A stretch of 64,000 nt of DNA from a virus. Within the stretch, counting starts at the first letter, position 1; the number at the start of each line of letters is the position of its first letter. Where the stretch lies: positions 1 through 64,000 of the IMG/VR virus record IMGVR_UViG_3300017749_000005, one strand, 5' to 3'. Below the pieces are notes generated by a model, which did not search any database, had not been told where the DNA came from, and was given only the letters and a program-made list of their open reading frames with translations. The translations under genes were made by a program, and so were the position numbers. Positions 53,813-64,000 of the stretch are shown piece by piece.

Positions 53813-54088
53813 TTAAGTTTTTTTCATAATTTTAGTGCTAAAACCCTCTTTTTTAGTCCCTTTTCCATCGTTTCCACGATTAGCCTTAACACTTTTAAAT
53901 TTATTGTCCTTATGGTCGTAGTCCTTACCCTTCATAGATGGATTATCTCGATGCTTTTTCTGTGAATCAGCCTTTTTAGCACGCCGATCAGCCCTCATTG
54001 CCCTCTTCTTGTCACGTACCTTCTTAGCAGCCGCAGCCTTAGCACTTAGCTTTTGCTTAGGACCACCCTTTTTCTTAGGTTTTGCCAT
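53813..54088 (-). CDS. 91-aa highly basic protein; first gene of the leftward module
   Basis: Trimmed to the ATG at 54088 (MAKPKKKGGPKQKLSAKAAAAKKVRDKKR...). The track extension begins at a TTG inside the palindromic element. Confidence 0.6.
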   Translation of the reverse strand: MAKPKKKGGPKQKLSAKAAAAKKVRDKKRAMRADRRAKKADSQKKHRDNPSMKGKDYDHKDNKFKSVKANRGNDGKGTKKEGFSTKIMKKT

Positions 54089-54149: not shown

Positions 54150-54195
54150 TGTGACAATAGCCCCTTACTCTATACTATAACTACCTAATGTCACA
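54150..54195. promoter_or_regulatory. Palindromic element copy 1 (TGTGACAATAG-N24-CTAATGTCACA)
   Basis: It has terminal inverted repeats TGTGACA/TGTCACA plus TAG/CTA, and the internal sequence is about 80% identical between copies. It sits at the divergence point of the leftward and rightward modules. Confidence 0.7.
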
Positions 54196-54416
54196 GTTTA
54201 GAAATATAGGGATTTTGTATTATACCTACATTATTAAATTTACAAAGCAAAACACAAACTCTTTTTATTTACCCCACCCCCACCTACATTTCACATTTTT
54301 CATTATATTTTTTTGCGTTTACCCTTTACACCACACTACACAACAGCTACTACTATATAATTTACTTATAACTTTTTATCTTTTTTCCTCTCTTATGTAT
54401 AGCATTTTTATATTTT

Positions 54417-54441
54417 AAATACGACTCGTCATGGATAATAT
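54417..54441 (+). promoter_or_regulatory. Bipartite promoter-like motif P1: AAATACGA-CTCGTCAT-GGATAATAT
   Basis: One of 12 copies with an exact 8-nt spacer. It is preceded by the 18-mer ATGTATAGCATTTTTATA, which it shares with P5. Confidence 0.65.
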
Positions 54442-54493
54442 ATATATAATAAATAACTTATCTCTTTTTTTTAAATTAAGAATTTTATAAAAT

Positions 54494-54518
54494 AAATACT
54501 AATATAAAGGGATAATAT
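54494..54518 (+). promoter_or_regulatory. Bipartite promoter-like motif P2: AAATACTA-ATATAAAG-GGATAATAT
   Basis: It has the upstream TTTTATAAAAT extension. The ATG of 54565 lies 46 nt downstream. Confidence 0.65.
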
Positions 54519-54564
54519 AATTAATAAATAAATAAATAAATTTTAAACTTTAAACGAGAATTCT

Positions 54565-54801
54565 ATGGAAACTTTAAACATAACTACTAAAAGATTTGTA
54601 ATTCGTAAAACATTAATTGGTACTAATACCATTATAACCTTCACTACTAACAAAGGTAATAAGGTAACGTACGACCACGACAAAGTATATAACGCACACA
54701 AACAACGGTTTGAAGATATGCCTTGCTTTGCAAAATATAAATCCTATACCAATACCAATAACTTACCAGTATTTGTTAGGAATATGAAGGAGCTTGTATA
54801 A
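54565..54801 (+). CDS. Early small protein, family A (paralogue of 55817..56059)
   Basis: 78 aa. KRFVIRKTLIGTNTIITF..YDHDKVYN..KYKSYTNTNNLPVFVRN aligns along its length with the 80-aa paralogue. Confidence 0.65.
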   Translation: METLNITTKRFVIRKTLIGTNTIITFTTNKGNKVTYDHDKVYNAHKQRFEDMPCFAKYKSYTNTNNLPVFVRNMKELV

Positions 54802-54817
54802 GCTTCTTTTATAAAAC

Positions 54818-54842
54818 AAATACTATTTTAAATGGATAATAA
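54818..54842 (+). promoter_or_regulatory. Bipartite promoter-like motif P3: AAATACTA-TTTTAAAT-GGATAATAA
   Basis: Same architecture as the other copies. It is the only copy ending in A. Confidence 0.6.
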
Positions 54843-54869
54843 ATATAAATAAATATAAATAAATATACT

Positions 54870-55121
54870 ATGATAGATTATAATAATAAAATGAAAACAA
54901 TACTTGGTAACAACCTTGAGTTAATGATTAGAGATAGAGCATTCGATAGCTGCTCATACATAGATGAAGATCGTGATCAGATCTACTGCATAATAAAGCA
55001 TAGCTTTGATCTGTATAAAAACAACGACTTTGAGGACATGCTCGATGGTGCTGACGAAGTCAGTGAGTTGTATGACCGACAGTCAGAACTTTATGAAACG
55101 CAGCTACTTTTTGTTAAGTAG
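54870..55121 (+). CDS. Early small acidic protein, family B (paralogue of 55282..55554)
   Basis: 83 aa. The C-terminal half (LYKNNDFEDMLDGADEVSEL...ETQLL) parallels LYENEDFVMILDGAEATSEM...ETQLI. Confidence 0.6.
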   Translation: MIDYNNKMKTILGNNLELMIRDRAFDSCSYIDEDRDQIYCIIKHSFDLYKNNDFEDMLDGADEVSELYDRQSELYETQLLFVK

Positions 55122-55183
55122 TTGCTTATTAAAGTAAGTAAGTAAGTGCTATACACCACTGGTTAGTTATTTTTTTATAAAAT

Positions 55184-55208
55184 AAATACTAATAAAGTTG
55201 GATAATAT
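55184..55208 (+). promoter_or_regulatory. Bipartite promoter-like motif P4: AAATACTA-ATAAAGTT-GGATAATAT
   Basis: Same architecture, with the upstream TTTTTATAAAAT. Confidence 0.65.
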
Positions 55209-55281
55209 ATATAATTAAATAATATAATAATAATACCAATAAACAATTGTACGGCGATTTTGCCACAGAACCTTAAACCCC

Positions 55282-55554
55282 ATGCTTATGGAGCCGTTTG
55301 AGTTGAAAAATCCTGCATCACCTGCAGGTATGTTGGTTGCTGAATTTGGCAACTGTGTGTTTAATTTCCTGGATCATGAAGGTCTGCTAACTATCGAGTG
55401 CGAGCGAGTACACGATGGTAAGTTGTATGCGACTTTCACTCATGACCGTAGCTTATACGAGAATGAGGATTTCGTCATGATTCTGGACGGTGCTGAGGCT
55501 ACCTCAGAAATGACCACCGACCAAGGCTGGATAGAAACCCAGCTAATAGCTTAA
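55282..55554 (+). CDS. Early small protein, family B, GC-rich allele
   Basis: 90 aa. Codon usage and GC (42-48% on hand-counted lines) differ sharply from the flanks. Confidence 0.6.
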   Translation: MLMEPFELKNPASPAGMLVAEFGNCVFNFLDHEGLLTIECERVHDGKLYATFTHDRSLYENEDFVMILDGAEATSEMTTDQGWIETQLIA

Positions 55555-55664
55555 GCTAACTAGCTAAGCTAGTTTACTGCTAAGTAACCATCGCCCACCG
55601 CGATGTGTATAGCAGACCTATGCCCTTTTCATTAGAAACTAGATGCTTTAATAAATGATAATAC

Positions 55665-55712
55665 TGTGACAATAGCCTGTTACTCTATATTATATAATAG
55701 CCTAATGTCACA
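55665..55712. promoter_or_regulatory. Palindromic element copy 2 (TGTGACAATAG-N26-CTAATGTCACA)
   Basis: Same arms as copy 1 and in the same orientation. It is followed by T8 and then the 18-mer and P5. Confidence 0.7.
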
Positions 55713-55750
55713 CTTTTTTTTAATAGTAATGTATAGCATTTTTATAAAAT

Positions 55751-55775
55751 AAATACGAACCAAGTTGGATAATAT
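55751..55775 (+). promoter_or_regulatory. Bipartite promoter-like motif P5: AAATACGA-ACCAAGTT-GGATAATAT
   Basis: Same architecture. It is preceded by ATGTATAGCATTTTTATA at the same 4-nt offset as P1. Confidence 0.65.
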
Positions 55776-55816
55776 AACTGAAATAAATAATTAATTAAAC
55801 TTAAATAAATTTAACT

Positions 55817-56059
55817 ATGGCTACTACTAAATTAAATAATAAAACTACTAAAAGATTTATAATCTCCAAATCTTTAATTGGTACTAATACTATAATTACC
55901 TTTAAAAATAATAAAGGTGATGACTGTACTTATAATCATGATAAAGTATATAATACTTTAAAAGACAGATTTGAAGCAATGGCATGCTTTCAGAAGTATA
56001 AAAGCTATACTAATTCCAATAATCTACCAAAGTTTGTTAGAAATATAGAATTTGCTTAA
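55817..56059 (+). CDS. Early small protein, family A (paralogue of 54565..54801)
   Basis: 80 aa; see 54565..54801. Confidence 0.65.
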   Translation: MATTKLNNKTTKRFIISKSLIGTNTIITFKNNKGDDCTYNHDKVYNTLKDRFEAMACFQKYKSYTNSNNLPKFVRNIEFA

Positions 56060-56067
56060 CATTAGTA

Positions 56068-56108
56068 GTCAGAGAGTTTGCCTTATGGCTGCTCTCTGCT
56101 ATTTTCTA
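56068..56108 (+). terminator. Candidate intrinsic terminator
   Basis: CAGAGAG-N16-CTCTCTG, with an inner GCC/GGC pair, followed by CTATTTTCT. It lies 9 nt after the stop of 55817..56059. Confidence 0.5.
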
Positions 56109-56144
56109 TTAAATAATATATCCACTTTTTAAATAAATAAAACT

Positions 56145-56384
56145 ATGACTTTTAATAAACTACAATCACTAGTTCCTAATACTGAATTACACTATATATC
56201 TGACTCAGATGAGTTTTTCTCTGATAATAATCTTAATATGGAAAACTATAAACAATATAAATATATTCTATTCGAGTATACTATAGATAATATGAGTGAG
56301 ACTATTAACTCACTAGATTATAATAATATAAATTATAAAATAGAAACTGATGATTTTGACTTAGACTACATTTTAATAAAATAA
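56145..56384 (+). CDS. Early acidic 79-aa protein
   Basis: D/E/N/Y-rich with no Arg. No motif. Confidence 0.55.
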   Translation: MTFNKLQSLVPNTELHYISDSDEFFSDNNLNMENYKQYKYILFEYTIDNMSETINSLDYNNINYKIETDDFDLDYILIK

Positions 56385-56386
56385 AT

Positions 56387-56506
56387 ATGAATGATTTTCC
56401 TTATGGTGATTTCCTAGTAGAACTAATGCTAGCAAATACCAAATTTACCTTAGAAGAAATAAATGAGATGACTAGAGATGAAATTAACATGCACTTAGGT
56501 TATTAG
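56387..56506 (+). CDS. 39-aa ORF MNDFPYGDFLVELMLANTKFTLEEINEMTRDEINMHLGY
   Basis: Below the track cutoff. It starts 3 nt after the upstream stop and has non-low-complexity composition. Confidence 0.4.
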   Translation: MNDFPYGDFLVELMLANTKFTLEEINEMTRDEINMHLGY

Positions 56507-56517
56507 TTTTATAAAAT

Positions 56518-56542
56518 AAATACTGATAGCATTGGATAATAT
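56518..56542 (+). promoter_or_regulatory. Bipartite promoter-like motif P6: AAATACTG-ATAGCATT-GGATAATAT
   Basis: Same architecture, with the upstream TTTTATAAAAT. Confidence 0.6.
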
Positions 56543-56579
56543 ATATAAATAAATTTTAAACATTTAAACATTTACTACT

Positions 56580-56720
56580 ATGCCTAAAAAATATAACACC
56601 ATAAAAATTATATCACCTAAAAAAATACTCCTTAATAACATTGCTTTTATTAAAATCAATTCCACTCTCGAGTATAAATCTTTCATCACTTATAAAAATA
56701 ATCACTATGCGCAAGCATAG
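56580..56720 (+). CDS. 46-aa ORF MPKKYNTIKIISPKKILLNNIAFIKINSTLEYKSFITYKNNHYAQA
   Basis: It is the first ATG ORF after P6, 37 nt downstream. Below the track cutoff. Confidence 0.35.
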   Translation: MPKKYNTIKIISPKKILLNNIAFIKINSTLEYKSFITYKNNHYAQA

Positions 56721-56739
56721 TTTTTAAACTAACAGAACT

Positions 56740-57012
56740 ATGATTAAATCACTAGCGCTAGCAGCAATGCTATACACCCCACAGGTAGACTCTGTTTCAA
56801 CTGAAGTATATATGTCATCACTTGAAATGATAAGTGATATGGCAAAAGATATTAGTCATAAAAACTTTGTTAAGTCAGAAATAATAATAACACTAGAAGA
56901 CTTATCTGAGTGGATGAGAAATGATATAGATAATGAAACTATAGATCCTCGCTTAGCAGAAATATACATTAATAATTTTAACAAACTAATTAAACAAGTA
57001 AAAGAATTATGA
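56740..57012 (+). CDS. Early 90-aa protein with hydrophobic N-terminus
   Basis: The start MIKSLALAAMLYTP is signal-like. The rest is acidic and helical. Confidence 0.55.
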   Translation: MIKSLALAAMLYTPQVDSVSTEVYMSSLEMISDMAKDISHKNFVKSEIIITLEDLSEWMRNDIDNETIDPRLAEIYINNFNKLIKQVKEL

Positions 57013-57134
57013 AGCAAAATAAATACTATCACCCAGTAACAAAAGTAGAGATGTCAAGAAAAGACTACATGGAACTTATGTTTGGCAAAGAGTTTATGAA
57101 CTCTAAAGATAAAGGTACCTTAAAAGAATATTAA
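57009..57134 (+). CDS. 41-aa ORF (MKQNKYYHPVTKVEMSRKDYMELMFGKEFMNSKDKGTLKEY)
   Basis: It has an ATGA overlap with the upstream stop. Below the track cutoff. Confidence 0.4.
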   Translation: MKQNKYYHPVTKVEMSRKDYMELMFGKEFMNSKDKGTLKEY

Positions 57135-57136
57135 TT

Positions 57137-57307
57137 ATGCAACTAACTGAAAAAGAAAAAGATGTACTAGAATCAGTACTATACTATGCTAAAGAAAACT
57201 ACTATGTTCTTTGGCATGCAGGTGAGATGAAAACTAAGAGGTATGAAGAATATGCACTAGCCATAGAATCAATTAAAAAGAAGATATGGACAAGTGAAGA
57301 TGACTAA
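57137..57307 (+). CDS. 56-aa ORF (MQLTEKEKDVLESVLYYAKENYYVLWHAGEMKTKRYEEYALAIESIKKKIWTSEDD)
   Basis: It starts 3 nt after the upstream stop. Below the track cutoff. Confidence 0.45.
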   Translation: MQLTEKEKDVLESVLYYAKENYYVLWHAGEMKTKRYEEYALAIESIKKKIWTSEDD

Positions 57308-57315
57308 TATAATTC

Positions 57316-57340
57316 AAATACGAATGACTATGGATAATAT
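57316..57340 (+). promoter_or_regulatory. Bipartite promoter-like motif P7: AAATACGA-ATGACTAT-GGATAATAT
   Basis: Same architecture. The ATG of the next gene lies exactly 4 nt after the motif. Confidence 0.65.
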
Positions 57341-57344
57341 AAAT

Positions 57345-57494
57345 ATGAAAAATAAAAAATCAAATATTTTTGTAACTAATTTTGGTATGCTTACGCACTT
57401 ACTAAGCGATGGCTATTATTATGGAATAGTAGGTGTAAAAGCTAAATCTCAAGACAAGTACAATGCAGAAATTAAATTTAAATATGGAAAATAA
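57345..57494 (+). CDS. 49-aa early protein (MKNKKSNIFVTNFGMLTHLLSDGYYYGIVGVKAKSQDKYNAEIKFKYGK)
   Basis: The track ORF 57294..57494 is trimmed because its 5' part is the P7 motif itself (MDNINM is an artefact also seen at 60107 and 58077). Confidence 0.5.
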   Translation: MKNKKSNIFVTNFGMLTHLLSDGYYYGIVGVKAKSQDKYNAEIKFKYGK

Positions 57495-57726
57495 AATAGA
57501 AATACCCGCAGAACATTGGCAAAAGCTTTCAGCAGAGATACGAGAAGCAGTAGAATTGTTTCTTGAAGATGTAGCAGATAATATAAATGACTATGAACCA
57601 GACTACATACTCAGTGACAAAGGTCAAGTTGCTATACACAACATCAACTTCGGCAGTCAAGCAGACGAGTTACTAATAGATAACATACTAAACAACTACT
57701 TTAAATTAAAAGAACATGATAAATAA
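57484..57726 (+). CDS. Early protein, family C (ADNINDYEPD domain; paralogue of 58277..58654)
   Basis: Trimmed to MENKIEIP. LEDVADNINDYEPDYILSDKGQVAIHNI aligns with LDSTADNINDYEPDFEIGYNNEVSISNI. Confidence 0.55.
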   Translation: MENKIEIPAEHWQKLSAEIREAVELFLEDVADNINDYEPDYILSDKGQVAIHNINFGSQADELLIDNILNNYFKLKEHDK

Positions 57727-57883
57727 GGTTGAGCATTCAGAGTGTATAGACGCACTTGACTACTTGTCAGGTTTTATATGTGAAATGACAAGAGATAAAA
57801 AACACTACGTTACAATATTAATGAAGCGAGTGGCAAATGAGTATAATATTAAACTAGAATTTGACGAAGATGAAAAGATATAA
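57716..57883 (+). CDS. 55-aa ORF (MINKVEHSECIDALDYLSGFICEMTRDKKHYVTILMKRVANEYNIKLEFDEDEKI)
   Basis: It overlaps the upstream stop by 11 nt and fills an otherwise empty 140-nt stretch. Below the track cutoff. Confidence 0.45.
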   Translation: MINKVEHSECIDALDYLSGFICEMTRDKKHYVTILMKRVANEYNIKLEFDEDEKI

Positions 57884-58064
57884 TGTAGAACTACGACCTC
57901 ACACAGATGATGGTGATTATCACGAAGAAGATTATGAGTTTGACGACCTTGAAGAAGCAATTGCTTTTTCTAAGAAAAATAGAATTGATTTATATGCACT
58001 AACAGACTATGGCTCAGAAGGTAAAACTTATGATCCAAGAGATATAACTCACAAAATAAAATAA
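57870..58064 (+). CDS. 64-aa acidic early protein
   Basis: Trimmed to the ATG at 57870 (MKRYNVELRPHTDDGDYHEEDYEFDDLEE...). Confidence 0.5.
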   Translation: MKRYNVELRPHTDDGDYHEEDYEFDDLEEAIAFSKKNRIDLYALTDYGSEGKTYDPRDITHKIK

Positions 58065-58087
58065 ATACGAAACACTTTGGATAATAT
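58063..58087 (+). promoter_or_regulatory. Bipartite promoter-like motif P8: AAATACGA-AACACTTT-GGATAATAT
   Basis: It overlaps the stop of the upstream gene. The ATG of the next gene lies exactly 4 nt after the motif. Confidence 0.65.
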
Positions 58088-58091
58088 ATAT

Positions 58092-58274
58092 ATGAATAAA
58101 TTAACACATTTCCAAAAGCTTATGTTAACTGAATGTATAAACAGTCATTTAACTAAATTACATGATGATGTAGTAGAGTATCACGAGCAATATCCTGATA
58201 AGAATCTACTCATTGGTCCTAAATTTTACCTACAAGAAAGAGATGAAATACTACGTAAACTTAAATTAGATTAA
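58092..58274 (+). CDS. 60-aa early protein (MNKLTHFQKLMLTECINSHL...)
   Basis: Trimmed from the track ORF 58077..58274, whose first codons are the P8 motif. Confidence 0.5.
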   Translation: MNKLTHFQKLMLTECINSHLTKLHDDVVEYHEQYPDKNLLIGPKFYLQERDEILRKLKLD

Positions 58275-58276
58275 CT

Positions 58277-58654
58277 ATGAATAAACAAGAAATAGAAGAA
58301 AAGATCAAGGATCTTACTAGACAAATAGAATATAATAATACTGCTAACGAGCGAATGAGAAACCAAATAAATTCACTAAACGAAGATATTATGATACTAG
58401 AAAAACCTAAAATATTAGAAAGTGATCTTGAAATAATGATTCAAGATATAGCTGACATAGTGTCAACTATATTAGATTCAACAGCTGATAATATAAACGA
58501 CTACGAGCCTGATTTTGAAATAGGATATAACAATGAAGTTTCAATATCTAACATATGCTTAGACTATGATGCTACTGAAGATATTAAAACATATCTTCAA
58601 ACAAGATTTTATACAGTTGTACCTGACCAAACAACTGATGAAGATACTAAATAA
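58277..58654 (+). CDS. Early protein, family C (coiled-coil N-terminus plus ADNINDYEPD domain)
   Basis: 125 aa; see 57484..57726. Confidence 0.6.
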   Translation: MNKQEIEEKIKDLTRQIEYNNTANERMRNQINSLNEDIMILEKPKILESDLEIMIQDIADIVSTILDSTADNINDYEPDFEIGYNNEVSISNICLDYDATEDIKTYLQTRFYTVVPDQTTDEDTK

Positions 58655-58685
58655 TAAACTATTCATTAAAGAGTATTTATAATAT

Positions 58686-58710
58686 AAATACGATTACTTA
58701 CGGATAATAT
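58686..58710 (+). promoter_or_regulatory. Bipartite promoter-like motif P9: AAATACGA-TTACTTAC-GGATAATAT
   Basis: Same architecture, in an intergenic position. Confidence 0.65.
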
Positions 58711-58738
58711 ATATATAAACAAATAAATAAATAAACCT

Positions 58739-58969
58739 ATGGACACCACTACTTTAATTAACCTACTTAAGTCACATGATTGGTACTACCACTACAGTGA
58801 CGATCACAGCAAATGGATCAATGGCGTACAGTCACAGCGAGCTATCTATGACGCTATGGATGAACTCGGTAACACCGATGATGTAAAACAATTATATTAT
58901 GAGTATATGCCTAAGCATTTATTTGATAAAATAGAGAAGGCAAATGCTATACACGGCGAAATATTATGA
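58739..58969 (+). CDS. Early 76-aa protein
   Basis: A clean ORF 28 nt after P9. Confidence 0.55.
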   Translation: MDTTTLINLLKSHDWYYHYSDDHSKWINGVQSQRAIYDAMDELGNTDDVKQLYYEYMPKHLFDKIEKANAIHGEIL

Positions 58970-59055
58970 TTAGATTTGTAGGTACAATAGTACAAATACT
59001 ATATTTCTGTATGATAATAACACTTATTATATCAATATATAAATTCTTTTTTTAA
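58966..59055 (+). CDS. 29-aa hydrophobic peptide MIRFVGTIVQILYFCMIITLIISIYKFFF
   Basis: It has an ATGA overlap upstream and a TAATG overlap downstream, which suggests a translationally coupled micro-gene. Very short. Confidence 0.35.
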   Translation: MIRFVGTIVQILYFCMIITLIISIYKFFF

Positions 59056-59312
59056 TGATTAAACCTGAATGGCATTTTATGGAACGTGATAAAAGACTAA
59101 TAAGAATATACTCTGACATACAAGGTAGGTTGAGTATACTTCGCGAAGATCTAACAGTTGTAGACAATACACTAAAAAAACTGTTAGCTAATAAACCTAT
59201 ATATTTACAAGATATAAATACAGTACGTGATTTGCTAGGCGATGATTTGTCTGAAAGATTACAGAACTTAGTTGTAAGTGATGATTATCCACCTAATCCA
59301 AATAGAATATGA
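59055..59312 (+). CDS. Early 85-aa protein
   Basis: A clean ORF coupled on both sides. Confidence 0.55.
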   Translation: MIKPEWHFMERDKRLIRIYSDIQGRLSILREDLTVVDNTLKKLLANKPIYLQDINTVRDLLGDDLSERLQNLVVSDDYPPNPNRI

Positions 59313-59665
59313 AGCTGATAAAAGTTGTACCTAAAACTCAAGCTATGTACTATAGGTTAAAAGATAACCGCATAGGTGTGATATATCCTAACACAGGTTA
59401 TATCAGAGTAAGTCCTAGTTGGGTAAATGATCCTGACTACACTAAACATATGCAACCATATGCATTACAACGTAAGATAAACAACACTAAAAACTTAATC
59501 TTATATCAGATAAATCCTAAGAAAAAGATAACATCACCAAATGGTAATTATACTTACGTTAGGATATTGTTTGAAGACATATGGAAAATGCAACAATACT
59601 TAGAAGAATATGAAAACAAAAACTGTACTAAACAAACCGATGGAAGATATAAAACCATGCCTTGA
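59309..59665 (+). CDS. Early 118-aa protein
   Basis: It has an ATGA overlap with the upstream gene. No motif. Confidence 0.55.
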   Translation: MKLIKVVPKTQAMYYRLKDNRIGVIYPNTGYIRVSPSWVNDPDYTKHMQPYALQRKINNTKNLILYQINPKKKITSPNGNYTYVRILFEDIWKMQQYLEEYENKNCTKQTDGRYKTMP

Positions 59666-59975
59666 ATGTGGCAAAATGCATACTAGACGTAAATTCTGTT
59701 CACCATACTGTGGCTCTAAATACAGTGCTAAAAATAAAAGATTAGAAATGGGTGTAAACGATCCAGTTTTTGCAACAGCAAATATAAATGCTATCATTAA
59801 AGGTAGAGACACACCTATAGTAGACAACTCTTTTAATTTTATATTCTCAAACAAACTAGAAGATTGGTTAGGTAGTAAGAATAAATTAAGAAGAGATAAA
59901 TGGAGAGAAGCTAAAGTAAGACAGAAATTAAAAAAACAACAGCAAATAAATGGAGAAAACACCAAAACAAATTGA
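59640..59975 (+). CDS. Zinc-ribbon protein (CxxC...CxxxC) with basic C-terminus
   Basis: MEDIKPCLECGKMHTRRKFCSPYCGSKY. The start is ambiguous: ATG 59610 or 59640. Confidence 0.5.
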   Translation: MEDIKPCLECGKMHTRRKFCSPYCGSKYSAKNKRLEMGVNDPVFATANINAIIKGRDTPIVDNSFNFIFSNKLEDWLGSKNKLRRDKWREAKVRQKLKKQQQINGENTKTN

Positions 59976-60114
59976 TACAATATATTACAATGAACCTGAG
60001 TCAAGAGTTTGTAAGTATAATTTTGTTTTCTCTAATAAAATAAAAGATTGGATTTACGGTGCTCAAAGGATGAAGAATATTAAATACAAATCAAATACGA
60101 ACAAAGATGGATAA
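59950..60114 (+). CDS. 54-aa ORF sharing the F.FSNK[IL].DW motif with the preceding protein
   Basis: MEKTPKQIDTIYYNEPESRVCKYNFVFSNKIKDWIYGAQR... compares with FNFIFSNKLEDWLGSK in 59640..59975. It runs through P10. Below the track cutoff. Confidence 0.35.
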   Translation: MEKTPKQIDTIYYNEPESRVCKYNFVFSNKIKDWIYGAQRMKNIKYKSNTNKDG

Positions 60115-60117
60115 TAT
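60093..60117 (+). promoter_or_regulatory. Bipartite promoter-like motif P10: AAATACGA-ACAAAGAT-GGATAATAT
   Basis: Same architecture. The ATG of the next gene lies exactly 4 nt after the motif. Confidence 0.65.
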
Positions 60118-60121
60118 AAAT

Positions 60122-60304
60122 ATGAATGATGAAATCGAAATAAAAGTTAATAAGAGATTCATGGTAAATACTATTATACATTTATCCCTTGAATCAAATC
60201 ATATGTCACTTAGTAATGTACCAGATGTTAGAGAGTTATATGAGACTATGACCATAGATCAAGTTAAAGAAGATTTTGAACGTTTAAAAGCAATATATAA
60301 ATGA
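60122..60304 (+). CDS. 60-aa early protein (MNDEIEIKVNKRFMVNTIIHL...)
   Basis: Trimmed from 60107..60304, whose first codons are the P10 motif. Confidence 0.5.
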   Translation: MNDEIEIKVNKRFMVNTIIHLSLESNHMSLSNVPDVRELYETMTIDQVKEDFERLKAIYK

Positions 60305-60492
60305 GAACATTTAATAGATATAAAACAAATCTACGTATGCACGATGGTGATATATGGAGTTATAATACTAAAGTTGCTACAATATCTGATGGTAAGCTAA
60401 TTGTACCTAAGTGGTATTCAGTTACTACCAGCAAGCACGTTAACTATGCAGCACACCAATTAGGTTTACAAATCGTAAGAGAATATGAATAG
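60301..60492 (+). CDS. 63-aa early protein
   Basis: It has an ATGA overlap. The SYNTKVA...SVTTSKHVN pattern looks like a conserved small phage domain, but I cannot name it. Confidence 0.5.
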   Translation: MRTFNRYKTNLRMHDGDIWSYNTKVATISDGKLIVPKWYSVTTSKHVNYAAHQLGLQIVREYE

Positions 60493-60877
60493 CTTACAAC
60501 GACGGGTTTACGAAAAGCTTGAGCTTATAGTATATAAAAACCTAGATCAAGATCAACTAGACAGTTACAAAATATCATATGAAGTTATATATGGTATGAC
60601 TGCTTGTCAGTTGCCATGCTATACACTTAAAAACGCCACAGACTTCTCAATACACGAAAATTTATTCGTAGATAAAGATCTTTTTGATCAAAGAGTTGTA
60701 GATTTGTGCATAACATATTGGCCATTTAACCTTCACGTAGATACTAAAAAGCTACCTATAACTATAGCTGAGAATCAAAACCAAGGTTTAGATAATGGTT
60801 TATGTACTAAAATATTAAAGAAAATAGATAGTCTTGAAAACGACTATAATAACGATTCAATCAGAAGATTTTTATAG
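60485..60877 (+). CDS. 130-aa early protein
   Basis: A clean ORF overlapping the upstream gene by 8 nt. Confidence 0.55.
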   Translation: MNSLQRRVYEKLELIVYKNLDQDQLDSYKISYEVIYGMTACQLPCYTLKNATDFSIHENLFVDKDLFDQRVVDLCITYWPFNLHVDTKKLPITIAENQNQGLDNGLCTKILKKIDSLENDYNNDSIRRFL

Positions 60878-60913
60878 TACTATTTAGTAGTAGTGTTTAT
60901 TTAGTTAGTTAAC

Positions 60914-61001
60914 TGTAAGGTGGTGGAATTGGCAGACACGCTACCCTATCTCGGTAGTAGTAACATATGTTACTTTGGAGGTTCGAATCCTCCTCTTACA
61001 G
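60914..61001 (+). tRNA. Class-II (long variable arm) tRNA-like gene with a non-canonical anticodon loop
   Basis: Hand-folded cloverleaf. Acceptor stem TGTAAGG/TCTTACA. D arm GTG-GAATTGGCAGA-CAC (Leu-like). Anticodon stem CTACC/GGTAG with loop CTATCTC. Variable arm GTAAC-ATAT-GTTAC. T arm GGAGG-TTCGAAT-CCTCC. No CCA is encoded. Confidence 0.7.
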
Positions 61002-61019
61002 CAATTTAAATTAAAAGTT

Positions 61020-61127
61020 ATGGGATTATTAGCTTGGCAGTGTTGTCACTGTAATGCATTTAATGGAATATATAGAGTTAAATGTGGTAAATGTAATAAT
61101 AAAAAGAAAGTTAAAATGTTATTTTAA
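61020..61127 (+). CDS. 35-aa zinc-ribbon mini-protein MGLLAWQCCHCNAFNGIYRVKCGKCNNKKKVKMLF
   Basis: It has the CxxC-N10-CxxC pattern and ends 1 nt before the next ATG. Below the track cutoff. Confidence 0.45.
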   Translation: MGLLAWQCCHCNAFNGIYRVKCGKCNNKKKVKMLF

Positions 61128-61128
61128 T

Positions 61129-61308
61129 ATGGAAATTAAATTTATTTTATTCATTTACGGACTACTTATAATACTGATATTCAGTATGTTAGCTCTAAAC
61201 TGCTACAAAGACTGGGTAAATAAAAAGGAAAATTTTATTGACTTTGTGCTTTTTGCTGTGATAGATATTATTACCATCATAGCTTTCATAGCTCAATTTA
61301 TAAATTAA
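61129..61308 (+). CDS. 59-aa two-TM membrane protein
   Basis: Trimmed to MEIKFILFIYGLLIILIFSMLALN... The second helix is FVLFAVIDIITIIAFIAQFI. Confidence 0.5.
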   Translation: MEIKFILFIYGLLIILIFSMLALNCYKDWVNKKENFIDFVLFAVIDIITIIAFIAQFIN

Positions 61309-61331
61309 ATACGATTACTATAGGATAATAT
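61307..61331 (+). promoter_or_regulatory. Bipartite promoter-like motif P11: AAATACGA-TTACTATA-GGATAATAT
   Basis: Same architecture. It overlaps the stop of the membrane-protein gene. Confidence 0.65.
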
Positions 61332-61360
61332 ATTTATACAAACCAATTCAAATTTAAACC

Positions 61361-61732
61361 ATGGAAACCGAAGAAAAAGTAGCAGCCGTGCTCAATCATT
61401 ACGGAACAACAATCACACACGATTATAATGATCAAGGCAATACAGAATATGTAATGTATTCAGATATAACTAGAGATGGTTACGATTTATACGTAGCTAA
61501 ATTTAATGGCGAACCAAGTAATGGCGCTTTATATTTATCTGAGCATGTTTGCATGTATGACCATGACTTATGTCAAATACTTATACAAGAGATACGTAAA
61601 GAAGGTATTGAAATGTATATTGAGGATGATATATATGAAAAATGTCATTTTGATGATGTACTTCAAGATGAATTTTATTATCTACAAGATAATGATAAAG
61701 AGTTCTTAGATAAATATCCAATGGAAGATTAA
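61361..61732 (+). CDS. 123-aa strongly acidic early protein
   Basis: D/E/Y-rich throughout. No motif. Confidence 0.55.
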   Translation: METEEKVAAVLNHYGTTITHDYNDQGNTEYVMYSDITRDGYDLYVAKFNGEPSNGALYLSEHVCMYDHDLCQILIQEIRKEGIEMYIEDDIYEKCHFDDVLQDEFYYLQDNDKEFLDKYPMED

Positions 61733-61733
61733 T

Positions 61734-62033
61734 ATGACAGATAAAGAAAAACAAGAGATAGCAGATATTGTTATCAAAAAGATGCTTGAAGCTAAGCATA
61801 AGATGGATAAAGATTTATTTAATATAAATGATGTACTATTTACTTTACTAAATACGCAGTTGTCTCAGGAAGAGATTCTGGTTGGTGAATTAGCTAGGCT
61901 AATGACATTGATGAATTTATATGAAGACAAAGAAGAATATGAGAAGGCTGCTATAATTAAGAACAAGGTAGACAAGATCAATGATAAACTTGATCAAATT
62001 GAAGACGAAAAACGAAACAATGGTAATATCTAA
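61734..62033 (+). CDS. 99-aa coiled-coil protein
   Basis: Heptad-like, K/E/L-rich sequence. Confidence 0.55.
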   Translation: MTDKEKQEIADIVIKKMLEAKHKMDKDLFNINDVLFTLLNTQLSQEEILVGELARLMTLMNLYEDKEEYEKAAIIKNKVDKINDKLDQIEDEKRNNGNI

Positions 62034-62361
62034 AATATTAGGAATATTAATGGTTACAGCTACAGTATACAATGCTGTACCCGAACAAACAGATTCTACG
62101 CCCCTTATAACAGCCTCAGGCGCACGAATTGATGAAAGATGTCCTGAACAACACCGATGGGTTGCTGTTTCACAGGATATGTTAAAACGAGGTTATAAGT
62201 TTGGTATGTGTATCGAGGTATCAGGTGCAGGAGATTTAGATGGCACTTGGGAAATACAAGATGTAATGAACAAGAGATATACAGACTCAATAGATTTTCT
62301 TGTAGAAGATACTAGAAAATTAGGTAAGTGGAAAAACGTAAAGATTAAACTAATAAGCTAA
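62020..62361 (+). CDS. Signal-anchored 3D-domain (MltA/RlpA-like double-psi beta-barrel) muralytic protein
   Basis: Trimmed to MVISKILGILMVTATVYNAV. Then come PEQTDSTPLITASG, WVAVSQDML, and G.WEIQDVMNKRYTDSIDFLV, the Asp-containing 3D-domain pattern. Confidence 0.6.
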   Translation: MVISKILGILMVTATVYNAVPEQTDSTPLITASGARIDERCPEQHRWVAVSQDMLKRGYKFGMCIEVSGAGDLDGTWEIQDVMNKRYTDSIDFLVEDTRKLGKWKNVKIKLIS

Positions 62362-62369
62362 AATAAATT

Positions 62370-62394
62370 AAATACGAACACTACAGGATAATAT
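62370..62394 (+). promoter_or_regulatory. Bipartite promoter-like motif P12: AAATACGA-ACACTACA-GGATAATAT
   Basis: Same architecture. The ATG of the next gene lies exactly 4 nt after the motif. Confidence 0.65.
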
Positions 62395-62398
62395 TATT

Positions 62399-62887
62399 AT
62401 GAATATATTTTATTTAGACCGAGACCCAATAAAAGCCGCAAGACATCAATATAATAAACATGTTGTTAAGATGATCTTAGAATCAGCCCAGATGCTGTGT
62501 ACGGCTCACAGGATGCATATGTTGGATTATGAATGCCATCATATACCTTATAAAAAAGCACACGTCAATCATCCTTCTAGTATGTGGGCCAGACGATCAG
62601 CAGAGAATTATGCTTGGTTATACAGTCATATGATAGAGCTAGGTAAACAGTATACCATTAGGTATGGTAAAATACATAAGACAATCAAAGATTGTGAAAA
62701 AGTATTAAGTTATTTACCTGGAGGTATATTGTATACAGGTTTTGAGGATCCACCGCAGTGTATGCCTGATGAGTATAAAGATGAATGTACTGTTAAGGCA
62801 TATTGGAAATATTATGTCGGAGACAAAAAAAATGTAGCTAATCGTAATGAAACTGTTAAGACTGATATACCTAAACAGTATGTGTGA
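62399..62887 (+). CDS. 162-aa conserved-looking hypothetical protein
   Basis: The N-terminus MNIFYLDRDPIKAARHQYNKHVVKMILESAQMLCTAH and HVNHPSSMWARRSAENYAWL look like a widely distributed viral family that I recall but cannot confidently name. A distant DNA-glycosylase-like relationship is only a guess. Confidence 0.5.
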   Translation: MNIFYLDRDPIKAARHQYNKHVVKMILESAQMLCTAHRMHMLDYECHHIPYKKAHVNHPSSMWARRSAENYAWLYSHMIELGKQYTIRYGKIHKTIKDCEKVLSYLPGGILYTGFEDPPQCMPDEYKDECTVKAYWKYYVGDKKNVANRNETVKTDIPKQYV

Positions 62888-62929
62888 CAATAGGGTATTA
62901 ATATAATAGGGTAAGGGGCTAATGTCACA
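62883..62929. promoter_or_regulatory. Palindromic element copy 3 (inverted relative to copies 1 and 2)
   Basis: TGTGACAATAGGGTATTAATATAATAGGGTAAGGGGCTAATGTCACA. Its reverse complement is about 80% identical to copy 1. It overlaps the upstream stop and the first candidate ATG of the HTH gene. Confidence 0.7.
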
Positions 62930-63548
62930 TAGAAATCTTGAATATTTACATCGTAATAAAATTATATATAAGATGTTTCCAACATCGGATAAACCTACAA
63001 AAACTTTTTATTGGGGTTATTTCTTTGAACAAGGTACACATCAGTGTTATGATCTGTTTCGTAGTAAAGCTAAGATTACATCTTATAAGTCTCTTAAATG
63101 GCATATGTATGTTCTATATTATATTAATAAATCAGAGTCTGAGGTCAGCATGAAAAAAATAATAGATTATATATGCAATAAAGACAATGGATTCATTACA
63201 TTTACAGTTAAGGACAACATTAAAGACAATATGATATCTGATGTTCTTAACTCTGATTTGGATGAACCACCAAAAAATAAATTAAGAAAAGTTATATTTA
63301 AAGACTCTACTGGTTTATCTACAAAGAAGAAGTTAAAGATAGTTGGAGAGTTAATAGGTAAGTCTAAGTTGGTTAATAATGATGACATATATGAGTGTAT
63401 GTTAGAAATTAATAACTCAAATACAAGAATTACAATAGCTAACTTAGCTAGAATATTAGGTTGTTCCTCAAGAACTATTCATAGAAATATGGACAAAGAG
63501 TTAAAAAGAGAAAAGGATATACTTAATATTCAAAATGAAGAAATATAA
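62922..63548 (+). CDS. DNA-binding protein with C-terminal helix-turn-helix
   Basis: 208 aa. ITIANLARILGCSSRTIHRNMDKEL is a strong HTH. The start may instead be ATG 62973 (MFPTSDKP), because 62922 lies inside the palindrome arm. Confidence 0.6.
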   Translation: MSHRNLEYLHRNKIIYKMFPTSDKPTKTFYWGYFFEQGTHQCYDLFRSKAKITSYKSLKWHMYVLYYINKSESEVSMKKIIDYICNKDNGFITFTVKDNIKDNMISDVLNSDLDEPPKNKLRKVIFKDSTGLSTKKKLKIVGELIGKSKLVNNDDIYECMLEINNSNTRITIANLARILGCSSRTIHRNMDKELKREKDILNIQNEEI

Positions 63549-64000
63549 TATAAATACATACAGGTTATATAAAGAAGATGTTAAGCAAACTATAAAATCT
63601 CTGCCTGACGTAGATTATGAGCAATTAACTAGAAACCAATTAATAACAAAATTTATGCCTCTTGTAGAAAATATCGCTAAAAAGTTTTCAACCGCTGCAC
63701 AAGCATCAGGTACATTAGACGTACTAGATATAATACAAGAAGGTAGTGTAGGTTTAGTTAAAGCTGTAGATAGGATAGATTGGAACGTGTTTAACTTATC
63801 AGAAGATAAAGAAAAGACCATGAAGTCTTTCTTATCAAAAAGAATAAGAGGTGCAATCAGAAGATCAATAGATATGTATCGAGGTGATATGCGTATACCT
63901 GAACATAAGTTAAATGATATACGTAAGAACTTTGGTAAAGATGAGAAGATGGTTGCTATGTTCTTCAACTCTATATTTTTATCTACAGATGATACAATGG
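63535..64000 (+). CDS. Sigma-70-family RNA polymerase sigma factor, N-terminal part (continues past the window end)
   Basis: It is not in the ORF track because there is no stop in the window. My own translation is MKKYNINTYRLYKEDVKQ...MPLVENIAKKF...LDIIQEGSVGLVKAVDRID...SFLSKRIRGAIRRSIDMYRGDMRIPEH. This matches region 2.1-2.4 (DLIQEGxxGLxKAxxxFD; YAxxWIRxAI). The start overlaps the HTH gene end by 14 nt. Confidence 0.75.
   Translation, partial: MKKYNINTYRLYKEDVKQTIKSLPDVDYEQLTRNQLITKFMPLVENIAKKFSTAAQASGTLDVLDIIQEGSVGLVKAVDRIDWNVFNLSEDKEKTMKSFLSKRIRGAIRRSIDMYRGDMRIPEHKLNDIRKNFGKDEKMVAMFFNSIFLSTDDTM

Follow-up and report, generated by a model that had tools for sequence, protein, structure and literature searches.

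A conserved element at module boundaries as a putative promoter of middle and late gene blocks in a group of phages

A short element with inverted-repeat ends occurs three times at gene-module boundaries in the window (the whole stretch of 64,000 nt of phage DNA that was analysed), and one copy lies on the start codon of a gene encoding an HTH protein. What reads this element, and what does it control? The first-pass annotation suggested an operator of a dimeric regulator, with the adjacent HTH protein as the obvious candidate, or alternatively a structure acting at the RNA level.

Element copies and neighbouring genes in the window

The element pattern, TGTGACANTAG-N20-40-CTANTGTCACA, has exactly three matches in the 64-kb window, at the very places where the three copies had first been noticed (Table 1). 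None of 100 dinucleotide-preserving shuffles of the window gave a match, and the chance expectation is none. The heptamer TGTGACA occurs only four times in the 64 kb, three of them within the elements. Copies 1 and 2 are identical at 42 of 48 aligned positions. Copy 3 agrees with copies 1 and 2 at 39/47 and 39/48 positions when reverse-complemented and at only 33/47 and 35/48 as read, and its interior is therefore inverted. At arm position 8, however, all three copies have A..A as the unpaired base on the + strand. Thus simple inversion does not describe copy 3 as a whole, and the term inverted copy holds for its interior only.

Copy 1 is found where the leftward module (54088 to about 5212) and the rightward array diverge, as had been described, with 61 nt between it and the ATG of left1 (54088). 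On the - strand it reads TGTGACATTAGG...TAGAGTAAGGGGCTATTGTCACA, and its core is directed to the first late gene. The late module of the window (49 kb) contains no further copy of the element. Copy 2 has paralogous genes of 78-80 aa as neighbours, one on each side, and is flanked by AATAC...CTTTTTTTT. It originated by segmental duplication of the element together with the extended promoter and the e1/e4 gene (repeat families D6 and D7). The 67-nt extended promoter form (family D7), said to follow both copies, is present at 54395, 200 nt past copy 1, and at 55729, 17 nt past copy 2.

Copy 3 joins two genes. Its left arm holds the stop codon of the last early-array gene, immediately 5' of which is an early-type promoter motif (family D5, 62360-62404). 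Its right arm forms the first codons of the HTH gene (ATG TCA CA-), so the reported overlap with the start of this gene is borne out, as is the coupling to the sigma gene, whose ATG at 63541 is overlapped by the HTH stop codon. Relatives of the HTH protein fall into at least 7915 protein clusters, and its N-terminal MSH is invariant or nearly so. The AlphaFold2 model (pLDDT 85.6) has no fold match in PDB, and no relative is detectable among solved repressors. A full-length orthologue of the sigma factor, 253 aa long, contains regions 2 and 4; FliA and SigA are its best relatives in PDB. Judging by these domains, a sigma-70-family factor encoded next door would be a suitable candidate reader of the element.

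Table 1. Coordinates of the element copies, their promoter-like parts and the adjoining genes in the window
Feature	Position	Strand	Remarks
left1	53813..54088	-	first gene of the 49-kb leftward late/structural module
Copy 1 (class 1), 46 nt	54150..54195	-	exact pattern match; at divergence point
Copy 1 -10-like hexamer TAGAGT	54167..54172	-
Copy 1 -35-like box GTGACA	54189..54194	-	GTGACA, 16-nt spacer, TAGAGT across 54167-54194
Copy 2 (class 2), 48 nt	55665..55712	-	exact pattern match; inside early array
Copy 2 -10-like hexamer TAGAGT	55682..55687	-
Copy 2 -35-like box GTGACA	55706..55711	-	GTGACA, 18-nt spacer, TAGAGT across 55682-55711
Last early-array gene (phrog_624)	62399..62887	+	TGA stop 62885-62887 within copy 3 left arm
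Copy 3 (class 3), 47 nt	62883..62929	+	exact pattern match; core rightward
Copy 3 -35-like box GTGACA	62884..62889	+	GTGACA, 17-nt spacer, TAGGGT across 62884-62912
Copy 3 -10-like hexamer TAGGGT	62907..62912	+
Copy 3 conserved core GGTAAGGGGCTA-ATG-TCACA	62910..62929	+	from conservation profile of HTH sites
HTH-protein gene, 208 aa	62922..63548	+	Pfam HTH_11, weak
Sigma-70-family sigma factor gene	63541..64000	+	Sigma70_r2; runs off window end

Conservation and polarity of the core

The exact pattern is found in 121 copies in 118 IMG/VR stretches (90 distinct), and the HTH gene is carried by 454 contigs. Element, HTH gene and sigma gene occur together in a large clade of uncultured marine phages, whose hosts are probably Flavobacteriia, and the element keeps fixed positions there. 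All three are missing from the outgroup phages MW202828 and phi38:1, and the HTH gene was looked for in elemo phages and is absent. The copies fall into three positional classes: before the first late gene, inside the early array, and on the HTH start codon. The site orthologous to copy 1, 5' of left1, occurs at about 26 distinct loci, while the number of copy 2-type sites differs between genomes. There are only 2-3 copies per genome, and the HTH start is the sole site inside a gene. Some genomes have half-elements (the core alone) 37-38 nt 5' of the left1 ATG. Where a copy exists in the late module, its core is directed back into the 3' end of the capsid gene in one lineage (L086 type) and forward in another (L040 type).

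Judged by its sequence, the core of the element is directional, not palindromic. Its parts, in order, are the box G-Y-GAC-R, a spacer of 16-18 bp, the hexamer nAnAGT, and AAnAGGCTA-w-YGTCRCA. Sampling anchored on the HTH gene is unbiased, unlike retrieval by the exact pattern. In 80 genomes anchored in this way, the core is on the + strand in 79/79 HTH-start sites, rightward into the HTH/sigma/replication block, and on the - strand, leftward to the late block, in 77 of the 78 sites located 6-9 kb upstream. In a left1-anchored sample, which is independent of retrieval, every upstream copy found has its core facing left1. Only 5/69 HTH-anchored sites retain both arms perfect. Conservation is highest in an asymmetric block, AGTAAnAGGCTA, and the downstream arm, with the G-Y-GAC-R box 36-39 bp upstream (61/65 unbiased sites when measured from the HTH ATG).

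The upstream box of the window copies matches TTGACA at 5/6 positions. Spacers at unbiased sites, derived from the distance between the first G of the box and the ATG (HTH sites) or w (upstream sites), are mainly 16, 17 and 18 nt (21, 29 and 8 of 65 HTH sites; 25, 15 and 15 of 62 upstream sites). In the hexamer, the last T is invariant and position 2 is A in 73-80%, with 78% in the profile of HTH sites. Since the same core, downstream arm included, is kept at the non-coding upstream sites, it does not merely reflect coding. At the HTH site the start codon has a constant position in all sites compared (31 exact, 65 unbiased) and is ATG without exception. The corresponding base is variable at the other sites, where TG is even changed to CG. 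The 12 nt 5' of the HTH gene contain 7/12 G+C against a mean of 2.3, the richest of 53 window genes, which fits a leaderless start.

Proposed promoter function and its alternatives

We propose, tentatively and with somewhat less than even confidence, that the element is a sigma-70-type promoter used by host RNA polymerase with the phage sigma factor, the HTH protein or both, and that the HTH-sigma transcript is leaderless. Conservation, positions, polarity, geometry and the lack of covariation are shown by the comparison; promoter activity, the start point and the reader we infer as follows. Directional bipartite promoters would stand at the head of both long transcription units, which run out of the early region to the left and to the right. 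An A-tract would be followed by the -35-like (T)G-Y-GAC-R, the spacer, which is A/T-rich, and the -10-like nAnAGT, with the start point inside the strongly conserved block that ends the core. Copy 3 would fire rightward from a predicted start at or just before the ATG at 62922, giving a leaderless or near-leaderless mRNA that covers the HTH, sigma, recombination and replication, and RNR genes. Copy 1 and its duplicate, copy 2, would fire leftward into the structural module. The putative reader is host core RNA polymerase with the phage sigma factor, and the HTH protein would serve as co-factor or auto-regulator; the HTH protein may also be the reader itself, and co-occurrence does not separate it from sigma. 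The first sigma factor and HTH protein would come from early-promoter read-through, after which copy 3 would provide positive feedback. The downstream arm repeats the -35-like box in inverted form; it may give the same protein another place to bind, for pausing or auto-repression, or may serve as the -35 box of a weaker promoter facing the other way.

Several points speak against a promoter. Copy 2-type sites are directed leftward, antisense to the early genes at their left, and the late-module copy of the L086 type also faces the wrong way. Conservation from -9 to +8 around the predicted start, plus the following T-tract, exceeds that of ordinary sigma-70 promoters, which is unusual. One or two promoters would need to serve the entire 49-kb late module, and a sigma gene 3' of its own putative promoter requires a bootstrap. 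Note that sigma-70-like matches are at chance level in this A/T-rich DNA (64 found in the window, 68.4 expected); the resemblance rests on comparative conservation and not on any single match.

The best-surviving alternative, though an unlikely one, is that the element merely binds the adjacent HTH protein as a dimer or higher oligomer, which represses or insulates: early genes would be shut off at copies 1 and 2 and the HTH gene auto-repressed at copy 3, with the true promoters elsewhere. Copy 3, on the start of the regulator's own gene, has the classic auto-regulatory position, and an early promoter form lies just 3' of copy 2. The co-occurrence of the HTH gene with the element, arms conserved as sequence without compensatory change, and a downstream arm kept at non-coding sites although a promoter does not need it would also be accounted for, and an outgroup phage has TGTCACA-N14-TGTGACA ahead of an annotated repressor gene. 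What the comparison supports of the original operator proposal is a conserved cis-regulatory site at module boundaries that acts through its sequence and co-occurs with the HTH gene; an essentially symmetric operator is not supported. In unbiased samples the arms are unequally conserved and the dyad is often degraded. Fixed polarity into the headed operon is promoter behaviour and unexpected for a dyad operator, which needs neither this nor an asymmetric best-conserved block. Half-site centres are about 36 bp (3.5 helical turns) apart and would thus be on opposite helix faces, and no solved repressor is detectable as a relative of the HTH protein.

Less probable still is an RNA or termination signal, i.e., a transcribed hairpin with a U-tract that terminates transcription in both directions or insulates one module from the next, or a signal for processing, antitermination or translational control by occluding the HTH start codon, whose AUG would fall in the 3' arm of the stem. 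AAAA-S ... S-TTTT flanks most copy 2-type sites, and at unbiased upstream sites the element is preceded by an A-tract and followed by a T-tract. One family-type copy, located in a Salibacteraceae chromosome, has convergent genes on its two sides and flanks that are fully complementary (AAAAAG...CTTTTT). Copy 2 folds at -14.4 kcal/mol (z = -3.5), followed by C and eight T. Against this, 8% and 5.5% of shuffles fold as well as copies 1 and 3 do or better, a U-tract is missing from copy 3, the stem is A/U-rich with a loop of 24-26 nt, and a terminator scan misses the elements. A conserved RNA or DNA hairpin, including the RNA structure considered in the first-pass annotation, is not supported by the comparison of sequences. 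None of the 10 pairs of the stem is changed on both sides among 61 distinct unbiased sequences, and the covariation score is reached by all 500 shuffles. One-sided changes that break pairs are common (at arm position 3, C occurs with A and never with G), the interior has no covariation, and an Rfam search with the element gave no match. Moreover, intrinsic terminators do not evolve as invariant sequence over deep divergence.

A mobile or recombination element, either a miniature inverted repeat with TG...CA ends spread by a transposase or a target of site-specific inversion between copies 1 and 3 with their opposite orientation, is very improbable: inverted TGT...ACA-type termini, usually equal flanking bases in the exact-arm sample (C..C or G..G, which resembles a target duplication of 1 bp), near-identical loci that differ at both flanking bases together (L018 and L034), the variable number of copy 2-type sites and the chromosomal copy would suit it, but position and orientation are fixed over hundreds of diverged genomes, copies are few and genic only at the HTH start, the extra copy of the window is explained by segmental duplication with its neighbouring gene, the window shows no homologue of a serine invertase, and the early region was never seen flipped.

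Comparison with known systems

Promoters read by phage-encoded sigma factors include those of SPO1 gp28 and gp33/34, phiEco32 gp36, and the T4 late promoters (gp55). The element resembles them in that a phage sigma-70-family gene adjoins it, a phage-specific consensus heads the middle and late blocks, and the copies are few per genome with fixed orientation. It differs in its new consensus, in a conserved region that extends about 8 bp beyond the predicted start, in ending with an inverted -35-like box, and in that the regulator operon has its start codon within one copy; dependence on the phage sigma is putative here. In lambda PRM/OR, the cI mRNA is leaderless and the promoter auto-regulated. 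As in lambda, a gene for a DNA-binding regulator begins at the (here predicted) transcription start point, and the site borders divergent or temporally distinct units. Unlike lambda, copy 3 has neither a tripartite operator nor a divergent partner promoter, the downstream gene encodes a sigma factor instead of a lysogeny function, and the genome is of lytic type; leaderless initiation of the HTH gene is a prediction.

MotA-dependent middle promoters of T4 combine a MotA box at -30 with a sigma-70 -10 element. Likewise, -35 recognition could be taken over by a DNA-binding protein that the phage makes early and that acts at a box some 30-38 bp before the start, which would shift transcription to the next temporal class. 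Similarity of the HTH protein to MotA, however, is not detectable, the phage encodes a sigma factor of its own, and an AsiA-like partner is not known. The gp71 stoperators of mycobacteriophage L5, about 30 sites oriented with transcription that block elongation, are also short, asymmetric and intergenic with fixed orientation and, as may be the case here, are read by a phage HTH protein; the element differs in having 2-3 sites, at operon heads, with sigma-70-like geometry. Bidirectional intrinsic terminators share the order A-tract, inverted repeat and T-tract and, in the chromosomal copy, the place between convergent genes, but in the element the stem is weak and it is the sequence that is invariant rather than the pairing.

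Most likely, the element acts as a promoter, possibly as an operator too, that turns on the middle and late gene blocks of these phages. It would be a useful, not revolutionary, regulatory signal.

Copies of the element and their setting

The pattern TGTGACANTAG-N20-40-CTANTGTCACA matches the window exactly three times, and no match is found in any of 100 dinucleotide-preserving shuffles of the window, which bears out the three palindromic copies proposed by the first-pass annotation. The heptamer TGTGACA occurs four times in the 64 kb, three of them inside the elements. Copies 1 and 2 are identical at 42 of 48 positions. Copy 3, aligned with these two, has 39/47 and 39/48 identities as its reverse complement, and fewer, 33/47 and 35/48, in the orientation in which it is read. 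Its description as inverted therefore holds for the interior, but not for position 8 of the arms, which is A..A on the + strand in all three copies. Coordinates are collected in the table.

Positions of the elements and of features discussed with them
Feature	Sequence	Position	Strand	Remark
Copy 1	window	54150-54195		
Copy 2	window	55665-55712		
Copy 3	window	62883-62929		
HTH gene	window	62922..63548	+	sigma-70-family gene adjoins 3'
left1 ATG	window	54088		first gene of leftward late module
Early repeat family	window	54407-62404		at least 12 copies
Early repeat, examples	window	54484-54535, 55741-55792, 62360-62404		
Early repeat, T7-like copy	window	~54419-54441		reads AAATACGACTCGTCATGGATAAT
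Stretch with TTATAAATATAG	window	54196-54394		C-rich 200-nt gap
e1/e4 family genes	window	54565-54801, 55817-56059		~78-aa early proteins
tRNA-Asp gene	window	60914-61002		anticodon ATC, 89 nt
12-nt repeat array	window	45016-45315		inside ORF 44799-45992 (-)
Giant ORFs	window	6025-13758, 17045-24961	-	2577 and 2638 codons
Chromosomal copy	L142, Salibacteraceae MAG contig	6319-6365		
Outward heptamers	L126, MW202828.1 (outgroup)	10190-10217		TGTCACA-N14-TGTGACA
Half-element	L121	9416-9438		lacks upstream box

The setting first described for the copies was also recovered. Copy 1 marks the point of divergence between the 49-kb leftward module and the rightward array, and the first leftward ATG is 61 nt away. 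The extended promoter form (67 nt, family D7) comes 200 nt after copy 1 and 17 nt after copy 2. Copy 3 overlaps the start of the HTH gene: the ATG is inside its right arm, the TGA of the upstream gene falls in its left arm, and the HTH stop overlaps the ATG of the sigma-70-family gene. Copy 2 of the window arose with a segmental duplication of element, promoter, and gene (families D6 and D7).

The window is A/T-rich phage DNA with genes for GroEL, ribonucleotide reductase (RNR), terminase, portal, and tail fibre. The two giant ORFs belong to the structural module, and one of them has a match in a PHROG family of virion proteins. Among 50,697 deposited phage genomes, neither megablast (with 11 kb) nor tblastn (with the HTH protein) found a near relative. 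By terminase and GroEL, the closest cultured relatives are the Flavobacterium 'elemo' phages, Cellulophaga phi38:1, and Calle. Since all of these infect Flavobacteriia, the host of the phage is probably a member of Flavobacteriia. The HTH protein is encoded on 454 IMG/VR contigs, and HTH-related protein clusters number at least 7,915, many from ocean surveys. On a related 58-kb contig the late module runs leftward and an array of small early genes rightward, followed by HTH, sigma, ERF recombinase, an exonuclease-family gene (DUF3799), primase-helicase, thymidylate synthase, and RNR, all in the rightward direction. With this gene order, copy 3 falls on the boundary between early and middle genes, and copy 1 heads the late module.

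Several other features were observed in the window. Within the early array, ARAGORN identifies a tRNA-Asp gene with an unusual anticodon (Rfam tRNA, 40.8 bits). The e1/e4 family of early proteins, seen at many loci, has two to five paralogues per genome, and their number varies among relatives. In a structural or tail gene, a 12-nt unit (CCAGTAACATCT-like) is repeated head to tail about 18 times and encodes a protein repeat of four residues. A second promoter-like repeat family, (TTTTATAAAAT)AAATAC-N9-GGATAATATA, precedes small early genes. It does not fit the -33/-7 grammar of Bacteroidota, and one copy has 10 nt in common with the T7 promoter TAATACGACTC. A phage gene for RNA polymerase was not found. 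The two giant virion ORFs have neither RNA polymerase motifs nor PDB relatives, so a virion RNA polymerase was rejected as the reader of these early promoters. To the right of class 1 copies (those before the first late gene) there is a non-coding stretch with TTATAAATATAG 8-22 nt from the element and then GCCCCC, conserved across lineages (window and right flanks of L021, L036, L046, L049, L083, L093, and other loci). This stretch may be the first early promoter or an origin, or it may be situated close to an end of the genome. Another conserved motif, GGTGTGCCATT, is found 25-30 nt to the right of class 2 copies (those between early genes) at loci L001, L003, L007, L023, L032, L057, and L060.

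Distribution and the conserved core

In IMG/VR the exact pattern is found in 118 contig stretches, with 121 copies of which 90 are distinct. By tblastn of window proteins, the copies were sorted into three positional classes. In class 3, the ATG of an HTH orthologue (43-98% amino-acid identity) is always in the right arm and the sigma gene comes next. Class 1 copies are 37-143 nt upstream of the first late gene, and class 2 copies lie between paralogous ~78-aa early genes. Each genome has two or three copies. Across the compared phages the element, the HTH gene, and the sigma gene are jointly present or jointly absent; all three are missing from the outgroups MW202828 (63% terminase identity) and phi38:1. 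MW202828 has the same heptamers facing outward, in the divergent gap before a 'repressor protein' gene. Co-variation of arm variants between sites of one genome was not found, Y and R variants being mixed within genomes, and literature searches on the motif and on regulation in related phages were without useful result.

Among 185,579 species genomes scanned, family-type copies are confined to small or phage-like MAG contigs, with one exception. This copy is on a 1.29-Mb Salibacteraceae contig, in the 700 nt that separate a TPR-protein gene from a 142-aa ORF, two convergent host genes, with fully complementary flanks (AAAAAG...CTTTTT) and no phage genes within 4 kb. It may give a clue to the host, or to an origin of the element from something like a terminator.

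Because the exact pattern favours perfect arms, sites were re-sampled through the HTH gene. In this unbiased sample both arms are exact in 5 of 69 distinct sites. What is conserved at HTH sites, counted from the A of ATG, is a box G-Y-GAC-R whose first base is 36-39 nt ahead of the ATG, a spacer rich in A/T, and then A(-12), G, T(-10, 100%), A(-9, 100%), A, nAGG, C(-3, 100%), T(-2, 100%), A, ATG. Non-coding sites 6-9 kb upstream have the same profile followed by w-Y-GTC-R-C-A and a T-tract; HTH coding therefore does not account for the core. Half-elements of the form (G/A)GTAAnnGGCTAwTGTCAC without the upstream box were also seen, at L036, L085, and L068 (37-38 nt upstream of the left1 ATG) and at L121. 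Some genomes have a half-element at the canonical distance from the late gene and a full copy ~100 bp further upstream.

The core has a fixed direction. In 80 genomes it is on the + strand at 79 HTH sites and on the - strand at 77 of 78 upstream sites, and in a left1-anchored sample, which is independent of how the loci were retrieved, the core of every upstream copy found points toward left1. HTH-site and upstream cores thus point outward from the early region, each into the long operon that it heads. Intergenic regions of the late module yielded neither other copies nor a shared motif. Other lineages do have extra late-module copies, of which one type (as in L040) points forward to a tail-fibre gene and another (as in L086) back at the capsid gene.

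The arms show some peculiarities. Position 8 is complementary in 0 of 124 cases in the exact-arm sample and in six of eight unrelated palindromes matching the same pattern. That it is never complementary was rejected as a general rule, since T·A is present at 17 of 61 unbiased sites, and avoidance of a perfect 11-bp stem is not significant (0 observed against 1.7 expected). In exact-arm copies (L001-L118) the arms mostly have the same base on either side, read on one strand (C..C or G..G), and hardly ever complementary bases; the near-identical loci L018 and L034 differ at both flanking bases together.

Promoter, operator, and other readings

At the sequence level the element has the features of a sigma-70-type promoter, namely a -35-like hexamer, a spacer of 17 +/- 1 bp, and a -10 hexamer, and this is the reading that we tentatively favour. 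GTGACA, which matches TTGACA at five of six positions, is present in all three window copies, with 16, 18, and 17 nt between box and hexamer. In the unbiased samples the G-Y-GAC-R box is found at 61 of 65 HTH sites and 58 of 62 upstream sites, and the spacer is 16-18 nt at 58 and 55 of these, respectively. In the -10-like hexamer nAnAGT the final T (the T-7 equivalent) is invariant (100%), and A at position 2 (the A-11 equivalent) is present in 73-80%. Immediately downstream is a gene for a sigma factor that has regions 2 and 4. Scores are less decisive: the mean -10 score in the core direction is above the random mean but single sites are within the random range, and 10 kb contains 64 sigma-70-like sites against 68.4 expected, the elements being among the best-scoring but not unique. 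The cores of late-gene and HTH sites point toward the genes they would serve, but those of copy 2-type sites and of the L086-type late-module copy do not. At copy 2-type sites the core faces left, antisense to early genes lying between the site and copy 1, and to call such sites tandem late promoters is a rationalisation.

The operator reading, in which the element is nothing but a binding site for a dimeric HTH regulator, is doubtful. The two inverted half-sites TGTGACAnTAG and CTAnTGTCACA are indeed present in the window and in the 121 exact copies, and this part of the earlier proposal stands. The symmetric, non-polar conservation that goes with it does not, since few unbiased sites keep both arms, the best conservation is asymmetric, and the polarity is fixed. 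Nevertheless, the downstream arm is an inverted copy of the upstream box, conserved at non-coding sites. A plain promoter needs no such arm, and there the operator idea may be right. The arm may be a second site for the same protein, causing auto-repression or pausing. Or it may be the -35 box of a weaker promoter in the opposite direction, which is possible because the central A/T-rich part has -10-like hexamers in both directions. The HTH protein itself may be an activator, a co-factor, or an auto-repressor; co-occurrence with the element is common to the HTH and sigma genes alike. Its AlphaFold2 model, a confident one (28 sequences, pLDDT 85.6), predicts that the N-terminal part is alpha/beta and that the C-terminal part is helical and contains the HTH motif, and a fold search gave no significant match among PDB structures.

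Both ideas could be combined, though improbably, in a self-contained switch: a -35/-10 promoter in a Bacteroidota host that is read only by the phage sigma/HTH pair, with the inverted box past the start as a decoy or brake. The same protein would then bind the inverted -35 box and cause pausing or auto-repression, and one 47-bp unit would provide positive and negative feedback on a leaderless HTH-sigma operon as well as the timing of the late block.

That the element acts at the RNA level, as a structure or terminator, is quite improbable. An A-tract and a T-tract flank it as in a bidirectional terminator, and the chromosomal copy lies between convergent genes. On the other hand, an intrinsic terminator is expected to have a G+C-rich stem, a loop of 3-8 nt, and then a U-tract, and here a 10-bp stem with four G-C pairs and a mismatch closes 24-26 nt; a terminator scan did not report the elements, and a U-tract is found at copy 2-type sites only. 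When 61 distinct sites are aligned, not one of the 10 stem pairs is changed on both sides, and the covariation score was reached by 500 of 500 shuffles. C at arm position 3 co-occurs with A on the other arm, never with G, one-sided arm changes are the rule at upstream sites too, and interior pairing is at chance level. Folds are weak for copy 1 (-8.7 kcal/mol, z = -1.4) and copy 3 (-12.2, z = -2.0), and copy 2 alone stands out (-14.4, z = -3.5). An Rfam search of the element gave no match. The RNA structure offered earlier as an alternative was rejected on these grounds of folding, covariation, and Rfam search.

A mobile or recombination element is highly improbable: inverted repeats are present, with 1-nt flanking identity at exact-arm copies, but the few copies per genome keep conserved positions instead of being many, dispersed, and non-orthologous, and, as regards a hix/gix-like inversion site, orientation is fixed in 80 genomes and the window has no serine invertase homologue. 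An N4-type hairpin promoter was rejected, as it needs a 5-7 bp stem, a 3-nt loop, and a virion polymerase gene. The element thus does not show the features that define intrinsic terminators, structured RNAs, N4 hairpin promoters, transposable miniature elements, and inversion sites.

Proposed regulation and its meaning

For the favoured sigma-70-type promoter, the family's geometry predicts a start point between CTA and wTG. At copy 3 such a start would give a leaderless or nearly leaderless HTH-sigma mRNA, a layout that by analogy recalls lambda PRM with its leaderless cI gene. Three features fit a leaderless mRNA. In 31 exact and 65 unbiased sites the HTH start codon keeps its position and is ATG without exception, and at other sites the equivalent base varies, with CG in place of TG. 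Of 53 window genes, the HTH gene has the highest G+C content in the 12 nt that precede it. The late gene, unlike the HTH gene, is at a variable distance from its copy. A second leaderless gene, with left1 starting at TTG in the arm of copy 1, was rejected, since the frame is open only in the window and the arm ORF elsewhere has 4-25 codons.

In the proposed order of events, early promoters, one of them at 62360-62404, would read through into the HTH and sigma genes. The sigma factor, with or without the HTH protein, would then activate copy 3, and with it the middle genes in positive feedback, and also copies 1 and 2 for the late genes. The primary sigma factor of Bacteroidota has a different promoter grammar (TTTG at -33 and TAnnTTTG at -7), so that a TTGACA/TATAAT-like signal would be free for a phage-specific reader. 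By analogy, the element would work most like the promoters of phage-encoded sigma factors. Its consensus is new, and an inverted downstream arm is unusual for promoters of this kind.

This phage clade is very abundant in marine metagenomes and has no cultured member. As the element marks the heads of middle and late operons, temporal modules can be annotated in hundreds of uncultured genomes. It also provides a concrete target for tests of sequence recognition by a phage-encoded sigma factor in Bacteroidota, a group with atypical host promoters, and a candidate for a regulator operon that is expressed leaderless. If the element is an operator or insulator instead, the positional map would still define the regulatory boundaries of these genomes.
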